DNA of 64,000 bases from positions 142,932 through 206,931 of the forward strand of contig JAUSED010000005.1 in NCBI GenBank assembly GCA_030650425.1. Direction: 5' to 3'. Shown here one piece after another: positions 1 through 52,268 of the stretch. The notes under the pieces were generated by a model. It worked only from the letters and a program-made list of their open reading frames with translations. It made no database searches and was not told the origin of the DNA. The DNA is from Candidatus Omnitrophota bacterium. GTDB lineage: Bacteria; Omnitrophota; Gorgyraeia; Gygaellales; Profunditerraquicolaceae. The translations under genes and the position numbers were made by a program. The stretch's first letter is position 1, and each line of letters starts with the position of its first letter.

Positions 1-64
1 AATATGCGGTTCTGCTCATTACGGTTATGCCAAGTTTGGTTCCGATCTTGATGGAAATGTATTC

Positions 65-3000
65 TTGAGAATGCCAGAATCGGAAGAAGGCATCGGGACC
101 GCGAATTTTATTATAACCAGCCTCTCATTTTTAATACAGGAATTGGTTGGAAAAGATAAATTTGCAGGCTGCGAGTTTTTGATCCGCTTTGTTAATGAAG
201 GAGATAATTTCGCAAAAACCTTCTTTTTCGGCGAATCTTCTAATGTAGAAAACCACCGCAATCTAATAATCCGTTATTCCGCCTCGCCGCTGGCCGATGA
301 GGAAAATAGAAACGACCTTTCAATCATAAGGCATAAAGAAAGCAAGGGTCTTGTTGAAATGATTCTAATGCGGTCATTAGAAAAAGGCCTTCTAAGCAAG
401 GAGGAGGTAAGATCATTCTTTGGTTATCTGCTTGAGATCTATAAACAGATAACTCTGGAAGCTCCTAAGGTTTTCGAAGTAATCAGCCTGTTGATTGATC
501 AAGATGCTATGATTCGGAATAATATTGATGTGCTCAAGGGTAGAATTCTTGATCTGATAAAAAATGAAGTTTGGGGGATTTATGGGAGATTTCACGCGTT
601 TAAATTTTTAAAAACAATTCTTACAAAAACGAAGTTTTTAACCAAAAATAATATTCTGGGAGCAATAGACTTTGTCAATAAGATTATTCTGCAGCACGGA
701 AGTGAAGTGTATAAAGTTTTTGAATCACTTGAGGACCTTTTTATCGCGGCACAGTTCTCTACAATGTCCGGCGGTGTCCTTGATTTTGAACGCTTAGATA
801 GACTCGCGAATGTTGGAAAGAGCAAGCTTTGGAAAGTTTACGCATCCTTAGCCAAAGCGCAGATTATCCCGCAAGAAAACACTAAGGATGTTGAAAACTT
901 ATTAACCGAAGCAATCCCTAAGCATATATATATACCCGGATACCCGCCTTATGTTCCTGAAGAAGCTTATGACGCCCTGATTGAATGGCAGGAAGCAGGG
1001 GCCTTAACTACTTCTAATATAGGGAGAATTGCGCAGATATTCAGGAATGTGGGAGACAGCGCGCATCAAGCAAAGATTGACGCAGGCCAGACTGGATTAT
1101 TCTTGGGTGCTTTCGGCCGTTTACGCGCCGTTAATGCGGCGAATCTTAATGAAATTGAGCGCGTCTTTATTTATTTTATAGAACAAGACTTGCAAAGGAA
1201 AGATAAAGGCCAGCTTCTTGAAAGTATAACAAACCTTATGGATGCAATAGATAGGCTGGTGGATCGTAAAGATGTGGATAGAAGCCTTGTGATGCCTGTT
1301 TATTTCAGCCAGCTTGAAGTTGTTAAAGATATTCTATGGCTGCATAAATTTTATCGAGATGGAAAATTTGGCGGTCTATTAGTTAAAAGTATTAAGGAAT
1401 ATAAAACAGGACAGAATCCTCAGGCAGAACTTTATGAAAATGTTCAACAGGATTTAATATATAGGCTTCAAGAATCTAAGTGGGTGCCGATTGATGGATT
1501 AAAAGTTTTGACTGTGCGCAGAATATTAATGAGCAGCCGCTTGGATTATGCTTTAGATAACTTTGGGCCAATACATCAAATATATCTTAACAACGGTCTT
1601 GACGGAAGGAAGACAGGAAATTCTCTGGATGACCGAGAGATTATGCGAGCTTGGGTCAGAATTGTGGAGCTGGCTTCTTTTGGAAAAGTTGAAGGCAGCG
1701 CTTTAATTTTTCGCATTGGCGATTCGGAAAGGCTAATCGTGAATTTCGTGAACGGCCAACCGCTGGAAGCGGTATATCCGGAAACTGTTAACGCCTCATT
1801 AAATCAAGCTATTCAGCTAAGGAAGAAATTGCTGATTAAGCGATTAGCAGGGGAGAACGAAGGATTTGAAAGCACTGCCTTGACCCGTTATTTGATACAG
1901 CTTGAGTTGTTACATCTGTCCGGTATTTTAAAAGGCCGCATTTTCTACCCTTCGATGGGTAACGATTATCTGCCCGCTTATTTCGGTACAGTTTTCGCGA
2001 CCAATCTGTATTCTGGATTGGGTGAGGACCTAGAGACGTACCTTGATGGTAAGAATTACGAAAAAGGCATGTTTTTATATGATTATTCGACACTAGCTCA
2101 GATTAAAGCAGACGTGGCTTTGGAGCCGGGATTTTCTCAGACATGGCAGGAGCAAGATACGGATATCCATGTCTTCTGGAAGAATAACTTTGATTTTAAC
2201 GCGTATCTGCCGCAAGCCGCAGCAGAAGGGCCTATGGACACAATAATCATTAAAGGAGTAACCTCTTGGTTAGGGTATTACATGGAAGAAAAAGCTACCT
2301 TGGGAATGACAATTGAACAGGCTATGCAGGGATTTTTTGGGCAGCTTAAGGAGTATTTAATAAAACCCGGCACAGCCATTGTTATTCTTGATTCCGAAGA
2401 TTTATGGATAGAAGATTTTCTCAAAACAACATACGGTTATCAATCTATAAATAAACTGTCCCAATTCAGGGCATTAGCCGAAGATCTTAAGCGCATACCC
2501 GTACGAGAAGAACGCCAATATCTCGGGAGAGTCAATACGCATGTGGGGCTTGTGCCAATAAAAATTCTTATAGCACCACAGTGGGATAATGGGAATAGTT
2601 CCATTAACAAAGTTGTAGAGCAAAAAGTTTCCTCGCCGCTGCAAAGAAACCAAGACGCTTTATCTAGCCCATTATCTAACAAGAAGTTGAGCAGAGGGGA
2701 CAGCGTCCGATTCAACAGCAGTGTAGACAGTTTATCCAGCCCATTATCCAGTAGGGAGTTACAAAACACTTCCGCCGCCTCGCCGGTTTCGAGAAAGAAA
2801 GAATTACAGAGGTTACTGCGGCAAGAAATCGCATTAATCAGCATAGGCGGGGCCTTTGTGGATATATTCTTCAATCAGGACGGGTCGGTATCAGAAAAAG
2901 CAGGCGGTTGCGAAGGTAATCTTGTAGTCAACTTTACAAGGATGGATAACAGAGCAAAAGCGCTTTTGGTTAGCAATCTGGGGGCTGATAAACACGGACT

Positions 3001-6000
3001 GTTTTTACGCGATTTGTATGGAAGAATCGGCATGAATTTGGCAGGGCTCTTTTATGAAAAAGGCCTGCCCACAGGCACTGTTGAAGTGAGGCGGGAATTT
3101 GACGGTCGCGGTAATGAAATTTCCCATAGATTTGATATAGACGATGGAGCATACCCTCAGCTTTCTGTTGGGAAAATTGTTTCATTAGAAAAAGTTTTTC
3201 AGAAGGCCAAATTCTTACATTTTGGTTTAACTGCATTATTTCCTGCAACCCCTGTTGCAAAGGCGGTAAAAAAGGCTGTTGAATATGCAGAGCAATATTC
3301 TCTTCTGGTTTATTTTGACCCTAATATCAGGATTTCTTCTTGGGTTAAGATGTTCGGTACTCATGAACTGGCGGCTAAGAAAATAATCGATACAGTCAAG
3401 GATACCCTCAGGTATGCGCATATTATTAAGATAAGCGATGAAGAGTTGTTTTTCTTGAACGGAACAGAAAATAACCATAGCGGCATAGAAGAAGAGATTT
3501 TTAAGTTTGTGAGTGAATACAAGGAGTTAAAGTGGGTTCTATTGCTTGTTACCTGCGGCGAAAGGGGAAGCGAGTATGTTTTTCGCGGCAGTGGCACTGA
3601 CAACAAGAGAGAAATTGCCGCGGGCCATATTGAGGTGTATAAAAAATGGCCTTTTATAAGCGCTGTAGGCGCCGGAGATTCATTCAATGCCGCGGTAATT
3701 TCACGTTTATATCAGCTGCTTAAAGAGAAAGAGCTAAGCCGTATGACAGAAAAAGAATTGATGGATATCTTGAACTTTGCTTCTAAGGTTGCGGCTAAGG
3801 TTGTATCACAGGAAGGCGCTGTGCTTGAAAGAGAATGGAGGGGTAGGAAAACATCCAGCCCTCTTGACCTAAACGAGCTTATAAATGATCAGCTCAATGA
3901 TGTTCTGTTTAAGGCGCAAACGTTAGCAGCATCCGGAGACCATATAACTGCCCTATGGTTTTTAATGAATACGGCTAATCTCAGCATTTTAATTAACAGC
4001 TATAAGGGCAATCCGAAAAATATCGAGAGAATCAAAACCGCCCTTGAATTAGCAAAAAACTTGAAAAAAGCCCAAGAAGAAGCCAATGGGATTCTAAGCA
4101 GAGGCGCTCAGGATGCAATCAATAAAAGAATCGCCTTGAATAGAGAGCGCGTAGAAAAACTTCTGATTCCGGTTACGGATATCAAAGACATCCGTCAATA
4201 TCTACCGTATTTCGGGACATATGCCGTGGCGGGCATGCGTATCGAGAAAGTAGTGCATGTTTACGCGCCTTCTGTTATTGACGATATCAGCGCGGTAATT
4301 TTTAGATACAGGCGGCCGAAAGTCGACAAGAATATTCTTCACTACGCGATTTTTGTATTGGATAAGCCTAAAGCTCCAAGCCACCAGTTAATCGCGCGAG
4401 CTTTTGTGGAGAAGAATTATCAATACCACAACGGAGGCTCTGTTAGCACAACTACTTTTGATAAAAAAAGGAATAGGCAGAACAAAATAGAGGTTAAGTC
4501 GAGCATGGAAAAAGGAATTGCGTTGTTTGTCTATGCAATGTTTCGCTATGGAGGAGAGGTATGGTTATCAGATATTTCCCGGTCTGATTCAGCTACGCGT
4601 ATGTATCAACGTATTAAAGAACGCATCGAGGAAGATTTATACCCGGGGTTATTGATTGAGTATTTTCTTTCTCCAAGAAGGTGGCGTATAAGTATTAATT
4701 CGAATAGCGAATGGCTGCCTCCTATAATTATTACTGAGATTCCTTATTCCCCAAATGATTTAGCCAGCAGCCCAGTGGTTCAAAAAAATATAGAGATAGC
4801 AGAAAGCGCCGCCTCGCCGGCGTCCCCAATTTCTTTTGGGAATAATTCTATAAAAGTAGAAGTTAATGATTTGATTAGAGCTATAGAAACCGCTCTTGGT
4901 TTTGAGGGGGAAATTGAATTTGACGCAGTTAAGGCCGCCATTAAAAGCGCAGATAGGCTTTCTGAGTTAGGCGTATTAGCTACAGAAGCTTTGCCCGTGT
5001 TAATTAAAGCCGCGAAAGAACAGCGTTTTGACGACGATGGTGTATTTTGCCGCGACCATTTTATCGCAGCCTTAATACGGATATCTCCTGTTGAGGAAAG
5101 AGTAGAGAATTGTTTGGCAGAAATTATTTTAAGTGACCCCAATGAATATTCAAGAAGCGCAGCTGCAAGGCAGTTAGTAGAAGGGCTACAAATTCCTTTT
5201 AATAGTTTGGCGAGATCTGCTTTAGAGAAAGGCGTTCAGGAGAAAAATTGGCGGATTTCTAACCCATGCAAAAAAGCTTTAGGCTTGCGTTCCAGTTCGC
5301 CTTTCAACTCAGGCCGTGACAAGCTTAATCCGTTTGTGATACTAACAAAAAGTAAGTTACGGGAGTTATCTATAACTAACCCTATGGCTTGGCATTACTT
5401 GCAAGCTAAGCGTATTGAGGACGGAATAGATGTTTATGTGAAGAATATTAGCAAAGCACCCGAATTTGCCAAAAGGTTTAATGAAATATTCAAGGAGGTT
5501 GAAGCAAAAAAAGATGAATTGCAGAAGCTTGGGTTAAGAGAACAAATAAGCGAGATTTATGAAATAATGTTAAGGGCTTTTCCTAGGTTAGTATATGAAA
5601 AAGGCTATTGTGTGTTTACCGCGGCTGGAATGGCAAGATCCCTGAGAAATATTGGGCACAAGGATATCGCAATATACAGAATAATAGCATTAACTCAATC
5701 GTTTGTAATTAAAGAAGCTGGAGAAGAAAGCGAGTATATTTATATCGACCATAGGGCAGAGCAATTTATTATAAGAGAACCTATAATAGAATCTATAATG
5801 GAACCTAGAGGTATGAAAGAGTTGTTGTGTTTAAGTTTACCTAGTATAGATAAAATTTCCAGTTCGCCGCTGAAAGAAATAGTTGGAGCGACGGTGGTGA
5901 CGCGAGGCGCCGCCTCGCCGGTTTTGGGAAAAATAGAACTATTTCTAATTTTAAATAGATTTGATTTGAATTTCGCGAATACTACTAAAATGCTTTATAT

Positions 6001-9000
6001 TACGGGTTACAAGCGTGGATTTGTTCTTGAAGGCAGTGGCAGCGATAAGCGAGTCTACAACCGCGGCATTATATGTTCTTTTAAAACGAGCAGCAATTCT
6101 TACAATGGAGCTAGTTATATTCAGGACAGCAAATATTTTTATGAAATTAAGAATATTTTCTTCTTGGGCAGGAGTCAGTGTAGGATACACCAAGAGTTCG
6201 TATTCGGTGAGGACAGAGATACTGGCTTTAATTCTTTTATTCTCGAGCTCCTCAATAAAAGCGGTAACGCTTTTATCTCCTCGCAGGTGATCAATAATAA
6301 TATTGGTGTCGATAAGGTATCGCATAGATTAAGAGCTAATTCTTTTAAGAACACCGGTTTTCCATTCCCTGCGGATTTTATTTTCAAAGGCAATTCCTTT
6401 GGGGGCTTTACTCAAGATACCCGAGCTTCTCCTGATGAGATTAATAGTAGTAGAAATAGCGGCTTTTTTAAAAGAAAGTGGTATAGTTATCATCCACTTG
6501 ATATCTTCGATCTTTTCCTCAAGGGTTTCCAGCAATTCCATAGTTTTATTATCCATCAAATACCTCCTGCTTTAGTAACCGAGATAAATATATCACATAG
6601 GCATAAAGGAGTCAATATTTATCTAGGAAGCTGTTTCCGTCCACCTGACGCCTCCGCCGCCTCACCGGTGGCGAGTGTAGTCAGTACGCAATATGACAGT
6701 GTAGTATGGGCGGAGAAGGTGGAAGAGGTATCCGGAAATCCGGTAGAGCGCTTAGCGCAGATTATCCAGATTGCGGCGCAGAATGATATACAAGCTATAA
6801 GAACCGGGCTTATCGGGCTGCTTAATCTATTAAGAAAACACAACCGGCTCTATCGCTATCAAAGCGCAAGGCTGCTTTCCCAATTAGCTAAAATAGAGTT
6901 TTATGAGAAAATACTGCGCTCTATCGGCGGAGGAAAACTGATTGGCTTAATTCATTTGATCCCCCTTGAAGAAAGATTTGCATTTGAGGTCCCCGATTTT
7001 ATCGTTCTTCCTCCCGAGCTCAGCAAAGAAGCGGAAGAACGGATTTTTGATTTACTGGAGGAAGGCGTTTATATCTTAAGGAGCAGTTCATTCTTTGAAG
7101 ATACAGAAGGTTTTCCGATACGCGGCGCGTATGAGTCGGTATTTTTTGTCAAAAACCCCCAACAAAATGAATATCGCAAGGGATATGATTTAGAAGTTTT
7201 TAGGAACGTGAGGGTAAAAGTAAACAGAAGCTTTAGAGACTTTAAATACGCTGAAGATAGGCTATGCTTATTGTTAGAGCGGGTTCCGGGCCATACGGTG
7301 ACACTTAAGATTGGTTATGCTAATCGCAGCTGCTATTTTCCGTCGTTTTCAGGTGTTACTAAATATAATCCCTATAAACTAAGCCACATAGTATCGGAAA
7401 TAAATCCCGGTTTGAATACCCCCACGGTTAAAGGAGGATATCACCGGTTCGTCGATAAGGATACTGAAAGCGGAGAAATAAAGGTTCCAGAAGTTTCCCG
7501 GACTTTGCGGCTTTATGGGACTGGGGATGTAATAGATATTTCACGTAACAAGTTAATCAGCGCAGACATAGTGAATAACACCTTGTCATTATGGGTAGAT
7601 GATTCAGATAGTTATAAAGATACATCTTTGATTAAAGGCGTCCATGAAAAATTAAGCGCTATTATCTTGAGCTTAAAAGAAGATTCAGGCTATAGGGAAT
7701 TAGAGTGGTCGTTTGATTCCGGAAAGCTTTATGTCTATCAGAATACGCCAAGTAAAATATGCCGTTCTTTGTCAAGAATAAAGGTAGATATACCAGTTGT
7801 CCCTGAAGAGCGCCTGATTGTCTCTTGCGCCGGTGTCTTTGGCCACGGCGAATTCACCGGCCCCTTAGTTTGGGTTAAAGACAGAGATGAAATTATGTTG
7901 AAACGAGAGGAATGCAAGCGCATAGCCAGAGAGTTTCCCCGAGGGTATATTTTAATAGGCAGCCGTTATTTGTTTATGGATCCAGACATGGAATACGCAA
8001 CCAGCCAATATTTTGATTCAGCTTTAGGCAGACTCAAAGGCTGGGTAGACACAAGCGGCTTGCCGCTTTCCATTTGCGCGCATTACGCGGAGGGATTAGT
8101 TGACAAGAATATTATAGTTATTTCTCAGTCAGCTATCGATTACACTAAACTGGAGCGCTTCTGTGATCAGCAATTAAAAACCGGTATTTTCGATGATTAT
8201 TATGAGATACGTTATAGCGAGGCTTTATTCCGCATCGCCGCCAATGCTCTGCAAGATAGGGGCATACTGTATCTGGCCAGCTCTCCTGGCCCCGCCGCTT
8301 CGCCGCTTAACAACGATGATCAATTTAATGCCAACATGCCAAAATCAAGAGAAGATGGCGAATTAAAGGGGTATTTCGTCCTGGCGGTACAAAACACCAG
8401 AAATGTAGACACTTTACGTAACTCATCGACTATCAGCGAGTTATGTAACAAATACGATAAGGACAATATTACACAAACCAATACCGCCGCCTCGCCGGTT
8501 TCGGAAAATAGGAAGGGACAATTCTATCGTAACTGTTCATCGGCCATGGAGATAGACAGAAACGGTCTGAAGGATTTCGACGGGTTAAAAGTTATAGATA
8601 ATGAGGAAGGGATTTTTCTGGTTTCGAATCGTCTTGGTGTCAGAATCAAAGCTCAACGAAAGTCAATCGAATTTGAATTTATTTCCTCTCCGCTGTTGTC
8701 AACCGATGTACGCCTGCGAAGTGTACAATGGGGTAGCTCTCCGGTAGAAAATAGTAATTTTGAAAAAGCATATTTTGGTATTTTAAGAGAAATTTTCGGC
8801 AGTGAAAATAAAAAAATATGTTTCCATAGCACTGTAATCTTGGCTTTATATCTTGAAAGAAGCAGGCATAAAATAAAGATACTACCTTCCAAAGAAATTC
8901 CCCCTGTTCCTTGTTTCAGTGAGACATACAGCGAGATAAAAATAGGAGTTTTTGTAAATAAAATAACGGGTAGTTATTCTTTACAGCATTGGTTAGAATT

Positions 9001-18000: not shown

Positions 18001-21000
18001 GGCTTTTCAGGAGCCGCTTCGGCGCTTAAACTATTGGCGGTTCGGAGGTGGCGTCTATCTAAGCGAAGAGTTGGTCGGTTTTATAGCTAATGACAGAGAA
18101 GCGATTATGTTCGGCCCAGCGCAGGATAAGAAGGTAACGGATTGTTATAGCAGAAACGGCCTTAGCCATTATTTTGGCAGCCATATTACCTTTTTAAGCT
18201 ATTTATTTGATGACGAGCTTAGAAATGGCTTTCTTTCTTTTGAGCCTACGGACAAAGAGCAAATGGATATAGTTTTTGGATACGCGATGGATTATTTGCT
18301 GCAAAGGTGCAAGAAAAGAGAGCCTCTTATGCCGGCATTGGAAGAATTACTTTCTAAGATACGGTTTGAGGAAAAGCAGAGGCTTAAAGAGGCAGGCGGT
18401 TATTATTCCTCCTGGGATAAAGAAAAAATACAAACCCTCATTGCAGAACATCCGCAGGCAGAAGCGCAATTATCCGCGTTAAAAGAAGAGATCAATTGGC
18501 TTAGGCGTCTTATTGCCCTTCCATTTTATCCAAATTACAGCCAGAGCCATATTACCAGAGCAGTGTTAAAGATTTTTGATGGCACCCGCGGTTTTGAGTG
18601 GAGATTTGGCGAAGAAATACAAGAAGCACATCCAAGGCCGCAAGGGCCGTTGAGGATTTTAATTGTTGATAGAACCCTTATAACGAGTCTCTACCTTAAG
18701 TCTTTTATTGAGGCGAATTTTAGTAAAGCAACAGTTGAAGCAATATATAATTGTTATGACGCGGCTGAAAAAATACCGTTTTTTGTACCGGATATTATCA
18801 TCTTAGATGGTAGGACCTCACACGATGATTATGGGCACGAATTAATGAGGAAGTATAACCAATTATCAAACGCGCCGCGGCTGATTTTAATTAGCGCCTG
18901 GGGTTTAGGCGACCTCTACCATGATACACAAGAATTGCGGAACGCTTATGCAAAAATACAGGTCTTAGGTTTTTACTCCCGCAGTGAAAACGAAGAAAAA
19001 ATTATCCCCTGGTTTAAACAAGTAGAAGATGAGATCAAACCAGCAAAAGAAGAAAGCCAAACCGCTGAAAAGAAGAAAGTAACTATATCTAAGGTGCTTT
19101 TTATTCATTATTCTAGCGAATTATTGAGAAATATTAGACTATATACTAAAAAGGCGCCTTTTGAAATCCTGACAGCTGATACAGAGGTAATGGCGGTTGG
19201 CATGATTAAAAAGCATCGTCCTGATATATTAGTCTATGACGTTAATTTTACACTTGAATCCCAAGCGCCTATAATCGGAGAATATATTAGGGTAAAAGGA
19301 GAAAGCGCTTATGTGATTCCTTGGTCAGCTGCGGAGTATTCCTTGAATGAAATCCGTCAGAGGCCAGGATGGAAAAAAATATGCGCACAGATAAAATTCC
19401 TTGATCCTGTGGTGATAAATTCAGATGCCGCGTTTTCGCGCTCCGGAGAAGGCGTAGATTATGTTATGGATGAAATCTTTAGGATAGTTTCAGGCCTGAC
19501 CGGGATTTCATCCAGCCCCTTAGCCAGCCCCGCCGCCTCGCCGGTCAGAGAAGAGGAAGCTGCTGTCAGATTAGAAATTGCCAAAAAGCTTTGTCATAGT
19601 TTAAATAACGCCGCCAGTGGTTTTTATGCTTGGTTAACTTATTTGGAGCGGAAAACCCCTCATTTTGATAGAGGAAAAGGAGATACCCTTCTTGGGAAGA
19701 TTAACGATTACAATGAGCTGGTAAGCGAATCGGAGGAATTACTACAAAATCCGGATAAATTAAAAGAAACAGTTAATAAATTGGATACCCTAGTAAACGA
19801 AATTAAAGAAATATTGCCCAAGCTACGTAACTTTTATGATAGTCAGGAGTTACTAGGGAGCATTGTATTAATTGGAGAAATAATTTCGGATGAATTACCA
19901 GAAAAACCGGTAAATTTAAGCGAGGTTTTGCCTTGGATATTTCGCAGCGGGACCTACTATCATGATTTTATGAAAATAGATTACAAAAACTGCCTTGGGA
20001 AAGACGCATTTGTTTTTGTCAGCAAAGATAAACTCTGGATTGTATTCGATAATTTATTGATGAATTCCATACAGGCTTTCCGAAAGTTTCATACTCTAAA
20101 GAAGGAAGATAGAAGGGTTACGGTGGAGCTGGGTGAAGAGAGAGATTATTATACGGTTGTTTATTCCGATAACGGCCCGGGGATACCCGAAGATTTATTA
20201 AGCAATATCTTTGATCCCTACGTAACAACTAAGGTCGGCGAACCCATATCGGGGTTGGGGCTTGCCATATGTAAGGAGATAGTCGTTAAGGCAAACGGCA
20301 GCATTACTGTAAAAAGCAAACAAGGGGAGGGCGCTACTTTTACTGTTTATCTGCCTAAAGAAACAAATGTTTTCGGAAAAGAAGGCGCCGCCTCGCCGCT
20401 GGCTGGCGAAGAAAATATAGGCCGGGAATTACAAGAGGCATTTGATAAAGCCGCGGAACAAAAAGCCAAAAAACCTAAAAAAGGCCCATCCTCGGGTTCT
20501 CCTATAGAAGATATCACCGCCTCCCCAAGAGGCGGAGCGGATAAATCCCCAAGAATTCTTGATCCTGACTATAAAAAATCTTCGCGTTTTATTGAAATCG
20601 ACCCGGAATATTTTCTGCCTGACACTCAATCCGGATTTTGGCTAATCGGGAAAAATGCTAAAGACATTTTTACAACTTGCACCGATATTGTATTCTTAAC
20701 TAAAGAAGAAAGAATATTCCTCGCTCATCTTCAGATTAATCCCAAACACCTTGAGAGCACAAACGAAAGGCAAAGCAAAGAACTGTTAGAGCGGCTGGTA
20801 GAGGACTGGAAAACCTATGGAGATAAGGACGAAAAAGGCCAAGGAGTCAGCACTTTTAATCCTCGAGAAATATTTAACGCGACAACTAAAGCGCTGTTAC
20901 TGAATAAATATCCCGCAAGAGAACCTTTTACTAATTGTTTAAGAGATTTTTTATTAGAGAAGGGGCTGGGTAAAGATAATATAAAAATAGATTTTGCAGC

Positions 21001-24000
21001 GCATCCAGCTGAGGATACGCAGATAGAATCTGTCAGTGTTTACCTGTGGCCTAAAGATAGACTTATAGAGACTGCCTTTGGCATATATGATTTACATTCT
21101 CCCGAGAGAAATAAGATTTTTGAGGTACATCGCTATCTTCGCGCCGAATTTAACTATCCGATTGTCTACGATTTACGCAATAATATTACAGCCGGCCCCG
21201 CCGCCTCGCCGGTGGATTCGAATGAAAAATCACTCTCGCCATTATATAAATCCTTCATTACCATTAATAAAGGAAAGTTAGAGAAACTCTCGGATTTACT
21301 TATTCAGCCAGATAAAGATATGCGGGATTTTGCGTTTGCCGCGCTTAAACTCTGCAAGAGAATGCCTAAAGAAGCCAAAGATATAATTAAAGAAGTAATC
21401 ACCAAAGTCCGCTTTGAGCAAATGATTGAGTTCTTTATGAAAGAGCCATCCGAATATGCCTTTAATTGCATTAAGTTATTTATAGATTTAAACCCCGCAG
21501 CAGCCCGTGAAAGTATCGGTAAAAAACACCTTTTAGAATTTATATCAATGATTAAAAGAAGGCATCCTGCCTGGATAATTTTATATAGATGTCTTGTGGA
21601 GTCTGGAAGATTAAATCCTGTTGAAATTGACGAAGAGGTCTTAAGAAATTTAATGAATTTAGAGGAAATGCCAAAAGAGCCTCTAAGCGGAGTAATACAA
21701 TATTCTATTCTAATAGCAGTTGAAGATTGCCTTAAATTATTTTCTTCTTTAAATAAGAGCGCTGTGACTCATAACCTTTTAGGGGAATTATTTTCTAGAG
21801 TGTCACCGGTTAATTTAATAGAAGAGCCTGATAAAGCAGCGCGCGCTGAAAATTTTCTTAAAATACTAGCGCCTTTCAATATTGAAAGCGCAAAATCATT
21901 TATTACGGGTCCGCTTCTAGAAAAGATGGCGAAATTGCGTAGAGGGCCTTTTAGGTTTTTTATCTCCATTAACCCTCAAGCAATCACCAAAAGTGTTGTG
22001 GTTGTTTTAGAATCTTACTTTGATCCTAAATACAATGATCATTCTGGCGCAATATCACTCTTATCTAAAGCTCACGCCTTGAATCCTGATGTGTGCAAAA
22101 AGGTTATTAAGGAAGATCTCTTAATACAACTGATGCGCCTGTTTTTTCAGAAAACACACATTTTTTCTTTAAGATACGCTTCTCTTATTAGAGAGTTAAC
22201 AAAATCCCTAAAATTAGAAGTCAAAAATATAACCGTGGTTTCCGATTTTCTTGGTGGGCTTTTGGAACTGTTATTGCGTCAGCTTAGCGGAGTAGGCGGG
22301 ACAGGTTACAAATATGATACAGAGAAAATTATTTCTTATATTAAGTTTTTTGCTCCTCTTTATCCAGAAGCAGTGGCTGACTTAAACCCTAAAGATAAGA
22401 CTATTAAATACCTTAAGGGGTGGCGTCGTATTCTTAATATAGATGAGGCGTATGAATTTCGCATTCTTAAGATTATAGAAGAAACTTTCGGCAGTACATG
22501 GCAGCCTGTTTTTAGAAAGGTAAAAGTAAATTGGTGGAATGGAGAGAAAGTTATACAACCAAAAGCTGGTAAAGCGCCTACAATTTCCTTTGAAGTTAAT
22601 GTAGACAAAGAAAATGTGACTGCGCCAAGCAAGCAATTAAAGGCTAGATTATGGGCCTGTGATAATAGTAAGCAAGAGCCAGTATGGCGTTTCTATAATG
22701 GCCGCCAGACAGATTTTACAGGGCAAGACACAGCTAAATTTGAAGTTTTACTCCCCAGAGGTTTTTTTGGAGAAGGGACAATGCAATATAGCACGGACAG
22801 CGGTAAAACCTGGCATTGGGCTAATATGGGCTTTGGCGACAACCTTACAGTATTACCAGCGCCTTCCGCCGCCTCGCCGGTTGCTAAAATAGCTTACAGC
22901 ATAAAGCATGTATCACATAAAAACTTCCTTCTTCTAAATCCAACATTATTGATTATTGCTGGTTTATTGCCATTAATCGCATTGCCCCTCCTTAATACAG
23001 GAATAATTGCGGTTATAATATCCGCAGGACTAACATTCCTAGGAGCTACAATCTTATCTTATTGGGTCATAAGACTATTCTTCTATCGGGGCTTAAGCCT
23101 CTCAACGAAGAAAATATTTTTATTAATATTTAGAATAGTTCAAATTTTTGAGATTGTATTTGGAATTAATCTATTGGCAATCATCGTATTGAATCTTTTG
23201 GGGATTAGATCCCCAAGATCTATTATCTTTTCAGAACTCTATCATTGGACATATGCCATCTTGACTTTTTACGAAATAGTTAACCATTACATTTATAGAG
23301 GATTAGGTAGTACTTTTAAATTTTATAATGACCTTTGGAATAATATCATAAGATTATTCCTTAAAGATAAGATTGATTTTAGTAAACCGGTAGGGGGTGC
23401 GATTGGAATTCAATTAAATAAGTTAAAAAGAGTGTTAGATATGGGAAAAGATTCTCAATCAAAAGAGCACAGTAACTCAAGTCCATTGGCTGTAACCTTT
23501 AGTCAGCTCAGAGCCCATAGTTCAGAATTCATAGATACGAGACTATCAACTATGAACAATGAAGAATTAGCTAAACATGCCGCCTCGCCGGTTTCGGGGT
23601 TCCTTGTATTGTTAGATGATAAGCAAGCCCGTTGCTTAGCAGATGAAGTGAATAGGACTTTAGGGGGAAATATTTTATCTTGGTGTCAGTCAGTAATAAT
23701 GGATGACTATTTTTGTGAGTTTGAATCCGGCCAACGTATATCTACGGATAATAAAGTGTCACAGGTTATTCGTTTTGGGCCATTGGTATTTGTTGTGATT
23801 TCTAGGACGCCCTCTAAAATAATAAATAATCTTTTGAAACAAGATATTGCTGAACTTAAAAAAAGGCTGGGAAAGGTTTATTCAGAGAATAAAACAAATA
23901 TTTTCTTTATAACTCCGTCTTACTATGACGTGTCGCCGTTGAGTAAATTTACTATGCCGGTTATCGCTGCTATGTTTAATTACAGGAATGAATTCAAGGA

Positions 24001-27000
24001 TACCGTCGTATTTGATGAAGGCGCCGGAGACGGCCTCTTATCCAGAATAGCTTTAAGATTGGGAGCGCGGAAGGTGGTTATGATTGACAATAAGCGCTGG
24101 CTATTAAATCTAGCGAGATTGTTCCTAAAAGAAGACGGTTGGGGCAAGATAGAAGAGAGGGAAGGCAAATTTGTTATTTTAGAGAGAGATTTAAGAGCCA
24201 TTTCTAGGTTGAAGATAGAGCTCAAGAGCTACCTTCGCGATAATAAACGCCTTGTGGTTATTAAAAACATCGGTCCTTACGAGTTTTATGGCAATGGCGA
24301 GACGGAACAAGCGGCTATAGATTTAGTAATTGGCTTGCCTGAACTTAAGCTGGTGATTAATGGAGGATATATAGGCAAAAACAATCTGGACAATTCCGGC
24401 CTTCATCAACGAGCTCTTACTGAGGTTCAGGAGGAATTTGTAAAAGAAGGCTTTAAAGTCCGAAGGTATGATTATAATATTGCGGCTATATTGGCAGCAA
24501 AACGGGAAAACCCTCATATTGGATCTAGCCCCTTGAATAATAAAAGGGACGCCCTTGGAGGCTCGCCAATTTCTACCCCCCTTAGGTTAGGCACAATAAT
24601 TCAGGTAGAGTTTATCAATGGGGCTTTAGCTGCTGTTGTCTCAAGCAGTATTTTAGTAAAGCCGGTTAACGAAGCTATTTTGTGCTATTCAGAGACGTTT
24701 GGCGCAAGCTCTACGCTTGAAGATAACTACACAGGACTTTTCCCGCCTCAGGGAGGGAATAAAAAAGATATAGACGCTTTATCCAGCCCATTGTCTGGCA
24801 AGGAAACGCAGGTTAAATCTACCGCCGCCTCGCCGGTGAAGCACAGTACAATTCAGGAAGCTGAAAACAAATGGCAGTGTGAGTTAGAGGAAATAAATGC
24901 TGCCCATTTTTCGAAAGAAGGAGGTTTTATTGAACATCACGGGCTGCCTCATTCACAAAGGATGTGGGAAAGCGCCAAAAGGCATTTCGGCGGGCATAGG
25001 ATTGATTTCGAAGTGCTTATCGCAGCTATTTATCTGCACGATATTGCCGTGGAGATAGTGAAAATAGCGCATGGCGCTGAAGCCGCTAAAATGGTAGAGA
25101 ATATTTTGCAAAATATAGGTTTCCCCAAAGATAAAATCCGTTATGTTTACGAGGCTATTCTTCAGCACGATGATTATAAGGCGGTAAGAGAATCTATGGA
25201 AAGTAAGATTATTTTTGCTCTAGACACAGAAGATGCTTATTTTGAAAAAGGGGCAAGATACTTGCCTATTTACCGTTTTAGAGGCATACCCGAAAAAGAA
25301 ATGTATCCCGCGATTATAGAAAATATCAAACTGCGTTTTAATTTGGTTACAGATGAGTTAGCCGAATTTAAAGTTCATCTTAAACTGCTGAAGGACGAGG
25401 CGATAGAAGAAATGGAAAGAAATGCAAATGCAGACGCTTTACATAACTTACCGCATATCAGCAAGTTAGGAGAGAAATCTCTAAGCGACCAAGACCCCGC
25501 CGCCTCGCCGGTTTCAAAGGGAAGAGAATCGTCCCCTAATTTTACGCAGAAAAAAGATACGCGGTGGTTATATTTGGAAGGAGAAGAATTTAAGCCTATA
25601 GGCGAAATATATAGAATGTTAAATAAGATTTACTATTCATTAAGGGCAGGTGGTATTTATACAGATTTTAAGACTTCTATCTCTAAAGATAGCCTTATCG
25701 CTCAAGTTTATGCCCAGCAATTATATAAGAGACTTATTGCAATAGGCAAAGTTCCTCCAATTATATATATCCATGAGTGGGGCGGGGCGGACGGAAAGTT
25801 CGCAGTTGATTTCTTAGACTCTTTTAAGAAGTTAGACATCGAGAATAGTTATTATCCACGTATATATTATATCTTAAGCGATTTTTCCTTGGCAATGTTG
25901 AGCATCGCTCGTAATAATCTCAGCCTTAGCTGCCATAGAGATCGATTAGCATATGTTCAATTTGACGCTAACGAAGAGCTGCCATGGAAAAAAGGCAGCG
26001 CCATGCTTATTCAGTTTCATGAACTTTATGATGATTTGGGCGGAGTAGAGAAAATAGTAAAAATAGGCAATGAGTTTTATCGAACAGGGGGAAGGTTGCG
26101 CCTGTCAGAAGATGATAATTTTAAAAAGCATGATGGAGCGGATGTAAACGCCGAGACTTTTTTCAACGGATATTGGAAACGCGGGCTTACGGGATTAAGT
26201 GAATTGGAGCCGTCTTTCCTGAAGGAAATTACAATTGAAGAAAAATATGATCCGATTGACTTAAGTACATATCCTTATGCAGGATTTCTAAAAAATTGGA
26301 CAGAGGGTATACATTCAGCGGTTTTTCCTTTGAATATAGGAGCGTTACAAAATCTCGAACGCGCTCTCGAGGTACTTGATTTAGAACGCGGCGCCTATAT
26401 CAATTTTTCTGATTACGCGTTTGTTTCCAAGAAAGGCCTAGTAGAAAGTTCACAAAAAGGTACTTTCATGGGAACCCTTGAATGCGGCCAGCCTACAAGC
26501 CAGATTAATTTAGCTTTCTTTATCTATATGTTAGCAGGAAGTAATCTAAAAATATCTTGCGAAAGACAGGAGAAATTTTTGAGCAGGCGTCTTGGTAGGG
26601 AAGTAAGAGAAAGAGATGTTTTGATAAAGGAGATTTTAAGTTTTTATCTATCAGAGAGAGATAGATTCGGCTATGATCTTGATTTTCAAGAGCAACTTTT
26701 CAAAGGAATTGAAATTCCAGATTTGTTTAGAGTTGATATATTGGATAACGGAGATTCGTCTGCTGAGGAACCCGAGGATCTAAGAAGAGGCATTTTTAGA
26801 AGTCTGGTAGCGCAATGCATAAACAATCATATGGACAATTTGATTAATGATTGGTTAGATAAAGACGAATTATTGGAGGAGTTGCTTAACGACCCGTCAT
26901 TGCAGTTTCTATTAGGGCGGATAGGGAGTGTTGATCCAGAAACCGCCGTTACTATTTTCACTAACAATTTATTTAAGATTAGAATACCGGAAGGGCCGAG

Positions 27001-28369: not shown

Positions 28370-28407
28370 GAGAGATATTAATTATTAAAATATTTAATAT
28401 AATTATT

Positions 28408-28436
28408 GAATATTTTGCAAATTGAGGCATAATAGT
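28408..28436 (+). promoter_or_regulatory. Candidate promoter for the PilZ genes (TTGAAT-17-CATAAT)
   Basis: AT-rich intergenic region. Motif spacing is plausible. Confidence 0.3.
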
Positions 28437-28500
28437 GTTAAGTTTACTTGTATCAGCGGGTTAGGAACGTAAGAATGTTTAGCAAAAGCTTGGAGGTGGG

Positions 28501-28857
28501 ATGGAAGAACAGCGTTGCGCGGCGCGCTGGAAGATTAATCAGGAAGCAGATTTGTGCGTTGATGAAGGAATTAAATCCATTCCTTGCGTAGTGGAAGATA
28601 TAAGCTCCCGCGGCATGCGTGTTTCTTTGGGAAAGGATCTCTTCCCTGATGTTTTCGCAAATTTTAACCTTACTCTTAGCGATGATTTTACATTTAACGC
28701 CGGAGCTCAAGTGGCTTGGGCTGAGAAAATCTATGAAAAAAATGTTTACGGGCTTAGTTTTAGCCGCATAGAAGAATCGACGAAAAACAGGATATGCCGA
28801 TATGTCCAAGATAATTTTCCTACTGAAATGACCAAACAAGCGTGGAGCGGAATATAA
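28501..28857 (+). CDS. PilZ domain protein
   Basis: QRCAARW (RxxxR) and EDISSRG (DxSxxG) motifs. GGAGGTGGG SD. Confidence 0.7.
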   Translation: MEEQRCAARWKINQEADLCVDEGIKSIPCVVEDISSRGMRVSLGKDLFPDVFANFNLTLSDDFTFNAGAQVAWAEKIYEKNVYGLSFSRIEESTKNRICRYVQDNFPTEMTKQAWSGI

Positions 28858-29517
28858 ATGTACGAACGCAGAAAATTAGCAAGATGGTTAGTTAACCAGC
28901 AGGCTAAAATTAGATTAGAAAAGAAAGATTGCGCGGTGCCTTGCTACATCAAAGAGATCAATTTTAGCGGAATGCAGATTGTTTTGGCTCCTAGACTGGC
29001 GGCTAGCCGCTATATTAAATTCGAGCTGGCCTTATCTAACGAGTTTATGCTGAAGTCAGAGGTATGGGTAGCTTGGCACAAAGAAATCGAGGGCCGGAAT
29101 GTCTATGGGCTATATTTTAATAAATTAACGCAAGCGGATCGGGACGGAATTTATGAATTTCTTTTTAATAGGATTCCGGACAAATCTTTAGAAGGAGGTG
29201 AAAAGATGGAAGATCACAGGATATTCCAGAGGTTTAACGTTAGGTTCCCGGCTAAACTCTTAGATTTAACTAACGGAAACGAGTTCTCTGCTGAAACCTG
29301 CGATATCAGCGCCAAGGGTATCGGGTTTGTGCTCAAGGATGACTTGCCCGCCAACACACCGCTAGAGGCTTGGTTGGAGGTTCCGGATAACCGTGAGCCT
29401 CTTTATGCCCGGGGTTTGGCTGTCTGGTCCCGGCAGGATGCTGACTTTGGATATCGTATTGGAATGGATTTGGAAAGAGCGGATCTGATGGGTCTGTCCA
29501 GAATTTTAAGAGTTTAA
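28858..29517 (+). CDS. Tandem PilZ domain protein
   Basis: Two RxxxR / DxSxxG pairs (ERRKLAR, HRIFQRF...CDISAKG). ATG abuts the previous stop. Confidence 0.7.
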   Translation: MYERRKLARWLVNQQAKIRLEKKDCAVPCYIKEINFSGMQIVLAPRLAASRYIKFELALSNEFMLKSEVWVAWHKEIEGRNVYGLYFNKLTQADRDGIYEFLFNRIPDKSLEGGEKMEDHRIFQRFNVRFPAKLLDLTNGNEFSAETCDISAKGIGFVLKDDLPANTPLEAWLEVPDNREPLYARGLAVWSRQDADFGYRIGMDLERADLMGLSRILRV

Positions 29518-29545
29518 AAAAGAGTTTAAAAAAAGAGCTTAAAAG
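29509..29545 (+). repeat. Three tandem 12-13 nt repeats, AGAG(T/C)TTAAAA(A)
   Basis: Overlap the PilZ stop codon. Lie just upstream of the SBP promoter. Confidence 0.6.
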
Positions 29546-29548
29546 CCC

Positions 29549-29577
29549 TTGACCTTGCCTAAAAAATATGTTAAATT
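29549..29577 (+). promoter_or_regulatory. Candidate sigma70 promoter for the sugar ABC operon (TTGACC-17-TAAATT)
   Basis: Sequence motifs only. Confidence 0.4.
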
Positions 29578-29645
29578 TTATATTCCTCCCCCTATAATAG
29601 GTAAGGAATAAAATCCAATATTATTATATAGGAAGAAAGGTTAGG

Positions 29646-31819: not shown

Positions 31820-31821
31820 GC

Positions 31822-52205: not shown

Positions 52206-52268
52206 TAGGATAACGGATGATGGATTATGGATTGTGGATAAATGAATTCGTAATTTCGTAATTTAGTA

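Follow-up and report, generated by a model that had tools for sequence, protein, structure and literature searches.

Omnitrophota are already known for giant open reading frames (ORFs), which run from 10,000 to more than 100,000 codons. Among those published is a multi-enzyme class in which kinases, receivers and methyltransferases occur; GH2 genes flank the giants and ROK-family kinase domains lie inside the giant proteins (10.64898/2026.06.07.730766; 10.1101/2023.11.21.568195). Cleavage of the products is an open question in this literature too (10.1101/2023.11.21.568195; 10.64898/2026.06.07.730766), and the want of cleavage points prevented West-Roberts et al. from splitting giant proteins for analysis (10.1101/2023.11.21.568195). 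The locus described here lies at the start of a window of 64,000 nucleotides (the whole stretch of DNA that was analysed). It resembles the published giants ("Archaeovorins", multi-enzyme; 10.1101/2023.11.21.568195, 10.64898/2026.06.07.730766) in its phylum, its single very long ORF, its unrelated enzyme-type domains, its mostly "dark" sequence and the GH2-like gene found downstream. A separate ROK gene downstream also belongs to a family that the published giants have as an internal domain. The giants of the two papers measure at least 10,000–30,000 aa; the part of the ORF seen here has 9,455 codons, with the 5' end outside the window. Term searches of these papers (10.1101/2023.11.21.568195; 10.64898/2026.06.07.730766) returned no repeated junction or linker motif, no nucleotide-conserved seams and no opposite-strand genes, and no account of such seams, nor of toxin–antitoxin (TA) operons within giant genes or inteins, was found in the literature.

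Sedentary chromosomal integrons share with this locus unrelated gene-sized units, a repeated site, one orientation and interspersed TA operons with a promoter. An integron has an IntI tyrosine recombinase beside the array, together with attI and Pc, its attC sites are 57–141-bp imperfect inverted repeats folding as hairpins, and chromosomal integron arrays typically include TA cassettes that bring their own promoters. Here, in contrast, the repeat is 11–16 nt long, unstructured and translated in frame, the units are fused in one ORF, IntI, attI and attC were not found, and the mobile TA unit ends off the repeat. Polymorphic toxins (CdiA VENN, Rhs PxxxxDPxGL) likewise have a short DNA-conserved motif where unrelated modules swap. 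However, their motif occurs once, ahead of a C-terminal toxin tip, and an immunity gene and orphan cassettes follow downstream, whereas about 30 seams follow one another here, and Rhs/YD and filamentous haemagglutinin repeats and toxin tips are absent. The analogy with Rhs or VENN swapping drawn in a first-pass annotation of the sequence is not retained: Pfam found no Rhs/YD, VENN-type or filamentous haemagglutinin family in any piece of the ORF, and swapping is not restricted to a C-terminal tip.

Viral and retroelement polyproteins also join many units in one chain, with a recurring Pro motif at unit boundaries, but the motif is nucleotide-conserved here, lies in a bacterial chromosome and comes with no protease found in the window. 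In-frame selfish DNA (Rickettsia palindromic elements, inteins with homing endonucleases, yeast mitochondrial GC clusters, "byps") similarly survives by sparing the host frame. It differs from the complete two-gene antisense operons found here, the compatibility of which is obtained by excluding three codons and not by splicing, bypassing or palindromic structure. VapBC and DUF433/DUF5615 TA systems resemble these operons by their antitoxin-then-toxin order, their PIN acidic residues and a promoter-like site (cassette A); unlike usual type II TA systems, the operons are antisense inside another ORF and an entire clade is recoded.

The giant gene and its modules

The + strand frame 2–28369 is already open at nt 2, the window edge, and runs for 9,455 codons without a stop (the ORF listing gives 65–28369 (+), 9,434 aa), while the remaining five frames contain 350–925 stops apiece over the same interval. 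The part seen here is the last 28 kb of the ORF. A codon log-likelihood scan detects a genuine coding signal in the giant frame along most of its length. Four downstream proteins are identical to NCBI MDO8662103/04/05/09 from "Candidatus Omnitrophota bacterium", on a 338-kb contig, and this match (NCBI series MDO86621xx) supports the Omnitrophota context named as possible in the first pass. Positions 28295–34331 recur with 0 mismatches in an independent Logan contig from SRR13727527, and this 6-kb contig was all that exact-protein look-ups for the 5' part of the gene or for orthologous 3' ends in related strains recovered. The DNA flanking the giant ORF (35 kb downstream) is ordinary chromosome, with a GH2-like gene, the ROK gene, PilZ, an ABC transporter and others. 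What the window contains is the 3' end, 28 kb long, of a natural giant gene from a Candidatus Omnitrophota bacterium; the gene belongs to the multi-enzyme kind known for the phylum.

Twenty-nine junction clusters delimit about 30 modules of 48–961 aa each, the majority of which are read in the giant ORF's own frame. The domain content consists of PfkB, two HATPase_c, REC-like, MTase-like, HD-like and PPDK_N-like domains; the rest is orphan, with few internal repeats. PfkB and the two HATPase_c exceed the Pfam cut-offs. Among the unrelated folds named in the first pass, these and the transmembrane (TM) stretch are confirmed in per-piece Pfam searches and the translation, REC is borderline, and MTase and HD are sub-threshold but consistent. 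The gene and its modules are located as follows.

2–28369, +: 3' part of the giant ORF, stop codon 28367–28369, 5' end beyond the window (ORF listing, six-frame stop counts)
2879–3823, +: PfkB carbohydrate-kinase module, full-length domain between seams (Pfam E 1.9e-19)
12424–13341, +: histidine-kinase (HK) core module, copy 1 (HATPase_c 12914–13249)
13342–14222, +: 881-nt segment in copy 1 only, bounded by an imperfect 20-nt direct repeat (EAFDKAA / EAFNKAA)
18656–18904, +: response-regulator receiver-like domain, borderline (REC 29.7 versus a cut-off of 30.2 bits)
19537–20454, +: HK core module, copy 2 (HATPase_c 20027–20362), 96.2% nt identity to copy 1
22883–23476, +: hydrophobic multi-helix (TM-like) module (translation; low codon log-likelihood)
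23966–24151, +: class I SAM-methyltransferase-like motif region, sub-threshold but consistent
24950–25228, +: HD-hydrolase-like region, sub-threshold but consistent

The 918-nt HK duplication begins exactly at TCGCCGGT. The homology of the two copies resumes after the 881-nt segment and ends at GSP(L/I) near 14289.

A homology search with aa 6968–9455 and with the translation of locus L051 gave no match, and the single match for aa 1–4139 (P0001) was rejected, as it aligns only to the read-through of an antisense TA cassette. Pfam assigned no piece of the window to a peptidase family, and a motif scan for the retropepsin signature D[TS]G[AS] was equally negative there. No recombinase or integrase was found inside the ORF or in the 35 kb downstream, the 5' side lying outside the window, and the 9,455-aa part has no dockerin, TSP3, C39 or S8 domain. 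Single-sequence AlphaFold2 models of modules with their seams had a mean pLDDT of 43.5 (HD-like) and 39.4 (PfkB), too poor to place the seams between folded domains.

Nucleotide-conserved seams between modules

The module junctions are short polar linkers with one to four copies of [A/S]-[A/S]-S-P-[V/L]; around the seams, N, T, Q, R and E are enriched and F, Y, W, M and I depleted. The first pass had counted at least 27 copies of a core on the + strand, all in one frame, and the recount agrees: TCGCCG[GC]T occurs 28 times in the giant ORF, always on the + strand and in a single frame (0 on the − strand), ending in GGT in 19 cases and in GCT in nine. In the giant frame the seam encodes A/S-S-P-V/L, its commonest spelling being GCC GCC TCG CCG GTN (14–16 nt). 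The longer GCCTCGCCG[GC]T was found 21 times inside the ORF versus 0 (+) and 1 (−) outside, and CCGCCGCCTCGCCGGT with at most two mismatches gives 20 matches, all + and all within the ORF (0.01 in shuffled sequence). In the other 35 kb of the window, for which the first pass had given one look-alike, TCGCCG[GC]T occurs 2 (+) and 2 (−) times. The seams of the giant ORF are listed below.

278–291, +: core TCCGCCTCGCCGCT (SASPL), core alignment
2627–2640, +: core variant GTTTCCTCGCCGCT (VSSPL), core alignment
2735–2746, +: second seam family TCC AGC CCA TTA (SSPL), 27 nt upstream of a canonical core
2663, 3854, 4766, 12320, 19511, 24524, 24782: further copies of the second seam family
2774–2787, +: core GCCGCCTCGCCGGT (AASPV), motif scan and core alignment
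5858–5871, +: core variant TCCAGTTCGCCGCT (SSSPL), core alignment
5909–5922, +: core GCCGCCTCGCCGGT, left flank of TA cassette A
6656–6669, +: core GCCGCCTCACCGGT (AASPV), right flank of TA cassette A
8294–8307, +: core GCCGCTTCGCCGCT (AASPL), motif scan and core alignment
8486–8499, +: core GCCGCCTCGCCGGT, motif scan and core alignment
9374–9387, +: core variant AATGCCTCGCCGCT (NASPL), core alignment
10235–10248, +: core GCCGCCTCGCCGGT, motif scan and core alignment
10742–10755, +: core GCCGCCTCGCCGGT, motif scan and core alignment
11336–11349, +: core TCCGCCTCGCCGGT (SASPV), left flank of TA cassette C
12335–12348, +: core variant GCCGCCTCGCCGTC (AASPS) with AASPL ahead of it at 12320, bounding TA cassette C on the right
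12419–12432, +: core variant GCTAGCTCGCCGGT (ASSPV), left breakpoint of HK copy 1 at the T of TCG, 12424
13274–13287, +: core GCCGCCTCGCCGCT (AASPL), within the duplicated unit
14927–14940, +: core GTCGCCTCGCCGGT (VASPV), left flank of TA cassette B
15680–15693, +: core GCCGCCTCGCCGGT, right flank of TA cassette B
16457–16470, +: core GGCGCCTCGCCGCT (GASPL), core alignment
16613–16626, +: core GCCGCCTCGCCGGT, motif scan and core alignment
19532–19545, +: core GCCGCCTCGCCGGT, left breakpoint of HK copy 2 at 19537
20387–20400, +: core GCCGCCTCGCCGCT, motif scan and core alignment
21200–21213, +: core GCCGCCTCGCCGGT, motif scan and core alignment
22868–22881, +: core GCCGCCTCGCCGGT, motif scan and core alignment
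23579–23592, +: core GCCGCCTCGCCGGT, motif scan and core alignment
24824–24837, +: core GCCGCCTCGCCGGT, motif scan and core alignment
25499–25512, +: core GCCGCCTCGCCGGT, motif scan and core alignment
27080–27093, +: core TCCGCCTCGCCGGT (SASPV), core alignment
28046–28059, +: core variant GTTTCTTCGCCGCT (VSSPL), core alignment
28094–28107, +: core variant GTTAGTTCGCCGGT (VSSPV), core alignment
28145–28158, +: core variant GTCTCCTCGCCGGT (VSSPV), core alignment

The same codons do recur, far above background, as the first pass had seen: TCG makes up 28/41 motif Ser codons versus 10%, GCC 23/24 motif Ala codons versus 20% and CCG 32/41 motif Pro codons versus 23%. Its GC-rich core in DNA of about 40% GC is equally real (14/16 positions versus 36–43% in the surrounding DNA). 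In the alignment of the cores, conservation stops sharply at ~15–16 nt and the flanks hold no information; 12 copies are identical 16-mers, each beside wholly unrelated sequence. The peptide [AS]SP[LV] occurs 41 times in the 9,455 codons of the giant ORF versus once in 10,987 codons of neighbouring genes. The second nucleotide family, TCC AGC CCA TTR, also encodes S-S-P-L with other Ser and Pro codons, and the peptide itself is thus under selection as well; this and the lineage specificity of the seam were absent from the first pass.

The conserved 11–16 nt of the cores have no inverted symmetry, and no attC-like or other structure was found at the cores: the MFE is -19.7 kcal/mol in core-centred windows versus -17.9 in random ones, a gap due to GC content. 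Rfam and tRNA scans gave no match. A rare-codon or inhibitory-pair idea was rejected, TCG-CCG not being avoided nearby (2 observed versus 1.25 expected among 20 S-P pairs of neighbouring genes, a small sample) and GCC and CCG not being rare there.

Seams of the same kind are present in other giant ORFs. The one in CP070797.1 has the same core (AASPV), an identity that is not counted here as cross-species nucleotide constraint. Elsewhere each core is different, in frame, strand-specific and far above shuffles: CCAGCTCGCCGG has 15 copies in locus L120, AAATCCCATCC seven in L121 and GCCGCGCCGGCGGGGC seven on the + strand of L001. Seam peptides are AASPV in the window and CP070797.1 and SSSPA, AAPAG and KSHP elsewhere, each lineage's core including an X-Pro codon pair (TCG-CCG, GCG-CCG or CAT-CCC). 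A 19-mer scan across genomes was dominated by chance matches in high-GC genomes, and among the matches listed only L051 is informative. A lineage-own, nucleotide-conserved, in-frame, proline-containing seam in each giant ORF appears to be a new feature.

Antisense toxin–antitoxin operons recoded to the giant frame

Three of the modules do not code in the sense direction: they are intact TA operons on the − strand of the giant ORF, each between two seams (3/3). Their genes are as follows, with the number of TTA, CTA and TCA codons, which read in register on the − strand are stops on the sense strand.

5951–6325, −: cassette A toxin, VapC-type PIN, 124 aa, codon-aligned with the giant frame, TTA/CTA/TCA = 0
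6329–6559, −: cassette A putative antitoxin, 76 aa, TTA/CTA/TCA = 0, homologous ORF in L001
6587–6615, −: predicted sigma-70-like promoter TTGACT-17-TATATT (with TG) upstream of antitoxin A, -35 box kept in five cassettes (promoter scan done on cassette A only)
11375–11734, −: cassette C toxin-like DUF5615 (PIN-like), 119 aa, E 1.7e-19, TTA/CTA/TCA = 0
11747–12004, −: cassette C DUF433 partner, 85 aa, E 4.3e-22, TTA/CTA/TCA = 0
14965–15423, −: cassette B toxin, PIN, 152 aa, out of register (offset 2), TTA nine times, CTA four times, TCA three times, internal control
15440–15619, −: cassette B putative antitoxin, 59 aa, codon-aligned, TTA/CTA/TCA = 0

The antisense TA operons reported in the first pass are genuine (E-values: PIN 6e-15 and 1e-12, DUF5615 2e-19, DUF433 4e-22), and among 17 antisense or out-of-frame ORFs tested in the giant ORF, the TA genes alone match families. 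The VapC NCBIfam matches of the PIN toxins are weak, under the cut-off; their acidic residues are invariant (alignment A1). Small ORFs precede the PIN genes of cassettes A and B at 4 and 17 nt, in antitoxin-to-toxin order, and these putative antitoxins match no family. The DUF433 and DUF5615 genes of cassette C are adjacent, 13 nt apart. Cassettes A and B are accordingly classed, from their sequences, as predicted VapBC-like type II TA systems and cassette C as a DUF433/DUF5615 pair with a putative toxin.

The five codon-aligned antisense genes use none of TTA, CTA and TCA, with 52 Leu codons among them, whereas synonymous recodings would bring 3.5–8.2 sense stops into each (P(0) ≤0.013); the out-of-register PIN gene of cassette B uses them 16 times. 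The four closest PIN homologues (69–75% identity) are all antisense in open frames and all recoded, three of them in 20.4-kb loci open end to end. In contrast, the other 45 homologues analysed (at most 54% identity) are free-standing and use the three codons freely. Between the window and L001, the PIN proteins are 71% identical versus 32.5% for the sense read-through of the same DNA. Recoded antisense genes next to an unrecoded out-of-register one indicate that the giant reading frame is kept open by selection, and ribosomes must therefore traverse the whole gene. The first-pass argument that a frame beyond 9400 codons is no accident is supported by the 9,455 codons and the outcome of the recoding test.

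Host-type seams lie on both sides of the antisense cassettes in the window (3/3), in L121 (2/2), in L120 and in L001. One relative of the TA cassettes lies within an intein (P0018), viral contigs hold distant PIN relatives only, and the embedded genes looked up were missing from the protein collection queried. Intact antisense TA operons between seams, recoded to the giant frame, appear to be a further new feature.

Possible origins and functions of the seams

The reading preferred here, in which confidence and doubt are evenly balanced, takes the seams for permissive signals within linkers (hinges or sites of processing) that are copied in module turnover. The process can be pictured as follows. 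The seam would first be a punctuation of the peptide, an X-Pro site in a disordered linker that would serve as a hinge and, probably, for processing; such processing would separate the modules and the meaningless peptides translated off the antisense cassettes. The linkers would be the only places where DNA gain, duplication and loss spare the modules, so turnover would take place there. With turnover confined to linkers, the seam would be recopied and its DNA homogenised within a lineage, with drift between lineages (AASPV, SSSPA, AAPAG, KSHP). The TA operons would be selfish residents adapted to the giant-ORF niche and may also guard the repeat-rich array against deletion, as in chromosomal integrons.

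Turnover at seams is favoured by the HK duplication, with its left breakpoint in the core and its homology end at GSP(L/I); copy-and-paste in this turnover has that one breakpoint behind it. Peptide selection with occasional copying may be too weak to account for 12 identical 16-mers, and a function at the nucleotide or codon level could instead be the main reason for them. Neither the 9,455 aa nor the 35 kb downstream contain a protease domain, the hinge or cleavage role being one that we infer. A bolder proposal, advanced tentatively, is that the giant genes of Omnitrophota are actively built in-frame cassette arrays, the lineage seam being the substrate of a dedicated insertion/recombination system, of an X-Pro protease, or of both.

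The cores could also be the sites of a dedicated lineage-specific recombination system, an in-frame analogue of integrons working by core-cassette-core insertion, which is considered unlikely. In the four lineages in which antisense cassettes were examined, each such cassette has direct repeats of the host-type core around it; the cores keep strictly to one strand, one of them holds the HK duplication breakpoint, and the TA cassettes recall chromosomal integron arrays. Of the seven cores in L121, four lie beside the two antisense cassettes, and one half of the locus contains all seven. However, no recombinase is present in the ORF or in the 35 kb downstream, and the conserved 11–16 nt have neither an attC-like structure nor inverted symmetry; read as integron-like, the cassette array proposed in the first pass would lack its defining parts, there being no integrase in those 35 kb and no such structure. 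Conserved cassettes moreover end off the cores, with unconserved spacers: a 660-nt TA unit common to L121 and L122 and a GT2 module duplicated in L121 both end 20–115 nt away, and the L122 copy and the second GT2 copy have no canonical core nearby, which shows that the core is not simply a cassette boundary. The suggestion that the linkers double as recombination handles stands for one duplication, with its left breakpoint in a core, but not for these two units. Such a system would also leave unexplained the same peptide in a second nucleotide family.

It is distinctly unlikely that the cores are read as codons or nucleic acid during expression, as a translational pause at the X-Pro pair or as an ops-like signal reloading an elongation or anti-termination factor. 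Their nucleotide and codon identity exceeds what the peptide needs, their frame and strand are fixed, and they are confined to the giant ORF, at module boundaries; an X-Pro codon pair exists in the cores of all lineages, and ribosomes must traverse the frame. Against this, TCG-CCG is not avoided in ordinary genes (2 versus 1.25 expected, 20 S-P pairs), GCC and CCG are not rare in the neighbouring ones, there is no RNA structure beyond the GC effect and no Rfam family, and degenerate seams retain the peptide, not the nucleotides.

Little probability is likewise given to the seam being only the protease site of a true polyprotein, the DNA identity reflecting recent common descent of the linkers. 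Two nucleotide families with a common peptide motif, polar linker-like flanks and X-Pro in the seams of all lineages are consistent with it, as is a retropepsin-like gene embedded between two seams of the L121 giant ORF, retropepsins being a class known for cutting X|Pro bonds. Yet no protease was found in the window, 12 identical 16-mers beside unrelated sequence are hard to obtain by descent alone, and a duplication breakpoint lies inside a core. Finally, an artefact (chimeric assembly, synthetic construct, adapter or linker), suggested by a 16-nt GC-rich repeat resembling a linker in AT-rich DNA and by the missing database homologues of most modules, has a negligible probability, given the same architecture in independent projects (an NCBI MAG, the complete chromosome CP070797.1, JGI contigs of 259 and 309 kb), a core sequence that varies by lineage, the genuine codon signal of the modules, an antisense recoding that is old and inherited since it is common to 69–75% identical homologues, and flanks of ordinary chromosome.

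How the Omnitrophota giants are built, expressed and processed is a question on which the seams bear. Lineage-specific seams provide an objective way to cut giant proteins into modules, which aids structure prediction and annotation, and they permit direct tests of processing at X|Pro termini. The recoded antisense TA operons are rare sequence-only evidence for selection on a giant frame, and they point to a new lifestyle of selfish genes, in which a whole PIN clade gave up three codons to reside in another gene, once in an intein. Standard gene callers do not see embedded antisense genes of this kind, and other long ORFs probably carry similar cargo that is being missed. If the giant genes are indeed cassette arrays, "one gene" would work as an operon-sized, rapidly re-shuffled polyprotein and would be a habitat for selfish operons recoded for the opposite strand.

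The giant ORF and its setting

The giant ORF (2-28369, + strand) runs from nt 2 for 9,455 codons without a stop to a terminator at 28367-28369, its 5' end not lying within the window, and the five remaining frames over the same DNA contain 350-925 stops. The first-pass annotation, which claimed a frame open for more than 9400 codons, was therefore correct. Scanned with codon log-likelihoods that were trained on adjacent genes, most of the ORF has a coding signal in its own frame. This signal speaks against a chimeric assembly, one of the doubts raised by that annotation, so that the ORF is a natural Omnitrophota giant gene; it is exceedingly improbable that its organisation is an artefact. Four proteins encoded downstream are exactly NCBI MDO8662103/04/05/09, MAG entries filed under Candidatus Omnitrophota bacterium and located on a 338,433-bp contig, and a Logan contig assembled independently from run SRR13727527 matches window 28295-34331 with 0 mismatches. 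The start of this contig (28295) falls within a 32-nt perfect palindrome (GTCGTAGGGGACATTTAAATGTCCCCTACGAC, 28293-28324) located inside the final 25 codons of the ORF.

The 35 kb downstream of the giant ORF are ordinary chromosome.

Genes within the 35 kb downstream of the giant ORF
two PilZ proteins
ABC sugar transporter
GH2-like enzyme
ROK, LacI
ribonucleotide reductase
MnmG, GreA, Amt
GS-III, GOGAT
51480-63426 (+), nitrogen-assimilation genes, taking in the Amt, GS-III and GOGAT named above: GAF-ANTAR regulator, ammonium transporter, type III glutamine synthetase, glutamate synthase large and small subunits

The nitrogen-assimilation neighbourhood, entirely on the + strand with a steadily positive GC skew, is likewise ordinary.

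Within the giant ORF, PfkB and two HATPase_c domains stand above Pfam cut-offs; the receiver domain has a borderline score, and the methyltransferase-like, HD-like and PPDK_N-like regions fall below threshold while remaining consistent. For the rest of the giant protein, no relatives were detectable among 5.8 billion proteins (queries aa 1-4139 and 6968-9455). Omnitrophota giant genes are already known as a kind of object: they include a "multi-enzyme" class with kinases, receiver domains, ROK-family kinases and methyltransferases, and often have GH2 genes nearby (10.1101/2023.11.21.568195; 10.64898/2026.06.07.730766). Neither the seam organisation nor recoded antisense operons were found in these key papers or in searches of a literature library.

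The seam repeat in the window and in other giant ORFs

With at most two mismatches, the 16-mer CCGCCGCCTCGCCGGT occurs in 20 copies, all on the + strand and all within the giant ORF (shuffles expect 0.01). For the shorter TCGCCG[GC]T the count is 28 in the ORF, all in a single frame, and 0 on its - strand (two copies on each strand in the other 35 kb), in line with the at least 27 same-strand, same-frame cores first reported. The cores form 29 junction clusters bounding about 30 modules of 48-961 aa, as many modules as had been proposed. Information content is confined to a block of about 15-16 nt and reaches background 1-2 bases beyond either edge. The recurrence of the same codons also holds: within [AS]SP[LV], TCG provides 28 of 41 Ser codons (background 10%), GCC 23 of 24 Ala codons (20%) and CCG 32 of 41 Pro codons (23%). 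This bias and the narrow block show that the seam is conserved as DNA, beyond the peptide alone.

A mini-domain or long linker recurs at ~8576-8854 (aa 2859-2951), ~27944-28198 (aa 9315-9399) and also 5861-5923, with 44-60% identity and two or three seam motifs each (pattern G-V-R-I-K-A-Q ... F-E-F-[IV]-SSPL-x3-VRL-x5-SSPV-E(R)-IVGATVV-x3-[AV][AS]SPV).

In the loci compared, each giant ORF has its own strand-specific, in-frame, nucleotide-conserved, proline-containing core, which makes the seam a lineage-specific feature.

Seam cores by locus (codons, peptide, copies)
Window: GCC GCC TCG CCG GTN, AASPV, 28 copies (counted as TCGCCG[GC]T)
CP070797.1 (L051): GCC GCC TCG CCG GTN, AASPV, 2 copies
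L120: CC AGC TCG CCG G, SSSPA/V, 15 copies with at most 1 mismatch (0.04 expected)
L001: GCC GCG CCG GCG GGG C, AAPAG, 7 copies, + strand
L121: AAA TCC CAT CC, KSHP, 7 copies (1.04 expected)

No protein similarity to the window was found in 8 kb of CP070797.1.

The seam peptide itself is selected, to judge from four features. The motif [AS]SP[LV] is 41-fold commoner in the giant ORF than in neighbouring genes; a second nucleotide family, TCC AGC CCA TTR (SSPL), often 10-17 aa ahead of the canonical core, spells a peptide of this kind in other codons; the flanks are polar, with few aromatic residues, and linker-like; and in L121 a degenerate K-R-H-P with different codons replaces KSHP at a paralogous linker. 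That the seam DNA is conserved too suggests either copying or a function exerted by the nucleic acid.

Antisense toxin-antitoxin operons

The codon scan also gives a coding signal on the opposite strand in three segments of the giant ORF. Each of the three is an intact two-gene operon with PIN or DUF5615 and a partner, which substantiates the antisense toxin-antitoxin (TA) operons of the first-pass annotation.

TA operons inside the giant ORF
5951-6325 (-), cassette A, PIN
6329-6559 (-), cassette A, 76-aa partner
11375-11734 (-), cassette C, DUF5615
11747-12004 (-), cassette C, DUF433
14965-15423 (-), cassette B, PIN
15440-15619 (-), cassette B, 59-aa partner

A promoter-like TTGACT-17-TATATT lies upstream of the cassette A antitoxin on the - strand. 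Codon alignment with the giant frame holds for five of the six genes, and in this register TTA, CTA and TCA, being reverse complements of stop codons, become stops on the sense strand. Not one of the three codons occurs in these five (among 52 Leu codons and the Ser codons of these genes), although TTA represents 34% of Leu codons in the giant ORF; random synonymous recodings yield 3.5-8.2 sense stops per gene (P(0) ≤0.013 each). The sixth gene, the cassette B PIN, is out of register, so that sense stops seldom arise from synonymous choice (P(0) = 0.37), and it uses TTA nine times, CTA four times and TCA three times. Set against this internal control, the aligned genes show that selection holds the giant frame open through functional opposite-strand genes. 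Gene callers retain the giant ORF and discard these genes. By exact look-up, the TA proteins at 5951-6325 and 11375-11734 (-) are missing from a 15-billion-protein collection in which neighbouring genes are present.

The sole database match of giant-protein aa 1-4139 is P0001, a 4,328-aa partial protein from another Omnitrophota MAG, and it is confined to aa 1980-2189, the sense read-through of cassette A. On the contig of P0001 (L001), homologues of the PIN and its antitoxin also lie antisense; they too are codon-aligned and use none of TTA, CTA and TCA. The two PIN proteins are 71% identical and the read-through peptides of the same DNA 32.5%, so that it is the antisense frame which is under selection. 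Scanning metagenomes with the PIN alignment gave 80 loci, of which 49 were analysed: the four closest homologues (69-75% identity) lie antisense within open frames and lack the three codons, whereas the 45 others (≤54%) are free-standing, face closed opposite frames and use these codons freely. The read-through peptide, used as query in a full HMMER search, gave six protein clusters at E ≤1e-10, with ORFs of up to 4,630 aa.

In L120, L121 and L122, a single frame stays open across all 20,372 nt of the locus; that of L121 is likewise multi-enzyme (PPDK_N/PEP-utilizers, PRK, GT2, NUDIX and others). L121 and L122 additionally hold an antisense retropepsin-like protease and a second PIN. They lie on one 309-kb contig (Ga0082335_1000071, 63-84 kb and 121-142 kb) with their TA units 58 kb apart, and could be parts of one ORF longer than 78 kb or of two giant ORFs.

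Proposed copying in linkers and the possible role of the seam

The shared TA cassette has the host's own core on both sides in the window, L120, L121 and L001. The L121 protease gene (1461-1916, +; clan AA aspartic protease, antisense in the giant ORF) likewise sits exactly between two KSHP cores (1140-1150 and 1956-1966). Many linkers contain the motif two or three times, so that a segment inserted there would end up core-flanked, no special mechanism being required. Four observations speak against a simple model in which the core is the cassette end: five TA cassettes are alignable only between the PIN stop and the -35 box and stop 20-115 nt before reaching the cores; only the 660-nt TA unit is common to L121 and L122; the L122 TA copy has no core nearby; and, of the two copies of a GT2 module in one L121 giant ORF (8355-9536 and 12120-13301, 93% over 1,182 nt), only one is surrounded by canonical cores, the other being that with K-R-H-P.

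The proposal that seams act as recombination handles fares unevenly. In its favour, a 918-nt histidine-kinase duplication (12424-13341 and 19537-20454, 96.2% identity) starts at precisely the T in TCGCCGGT, the sequences before that base being unrelated, and its homology, past an 881-nt extra segment of copy 1, stops at GSP(L/I); the early ends of the TA cassettes speak against it. The extra segment (13342-14222), absent from copy 2, lies between the two copies of an imperfect 20-nt direct repeat, GAGGCATTTGATAAAGCCGC / GAAGCCTTTAATAAGGCCGC (EAFDKAA / EAFNKAA); it was gained or lost at a repeat that is not a seam.

Taken as a whole, the reading given about an even chance is as follows. The seam would signal a permissive linker, its X-Pro acting as a hinge or as a site of processing, and its DNA would be homogenised because gain, duplication and loss of modules happen in linkers; ribosomes would translate through the entire giant frame, and the TA operons would be adapted residents. 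A dedicated integron-like recombination system acting at the cores is unlikely, as no attC-like structure was found at the cores and no recombinase in the window. Rather improbable is a codon- or RNA/DNA-level expression signal, since no avoidance of TCG-CCG was found in the ordinary neighbouring genes. Just as improbable is a seam that is solely a protease site and has no role as DNA, no protease having been found in the window. Retropepsins cut X-Pro bonds; the protease embedded in L121, together with the X-Pro of every seam type, might give only a lead for the processing hypothesis.

In the favoured reading, the TA operons may also stabilise the repeat-rich array. The antisense PIN-TA family also rides inside an intein. 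In P0018 (701 aa, from the read-through search), aa 55-392 match Pfam Intein_splicing (E 1e-12, above cut-off), and the cassette read-through (aa 113-310) lies inside this domain, at the position normally occupied by a homing endonuclease. At this location, the meaningless peptide would be removed by protein splicing.
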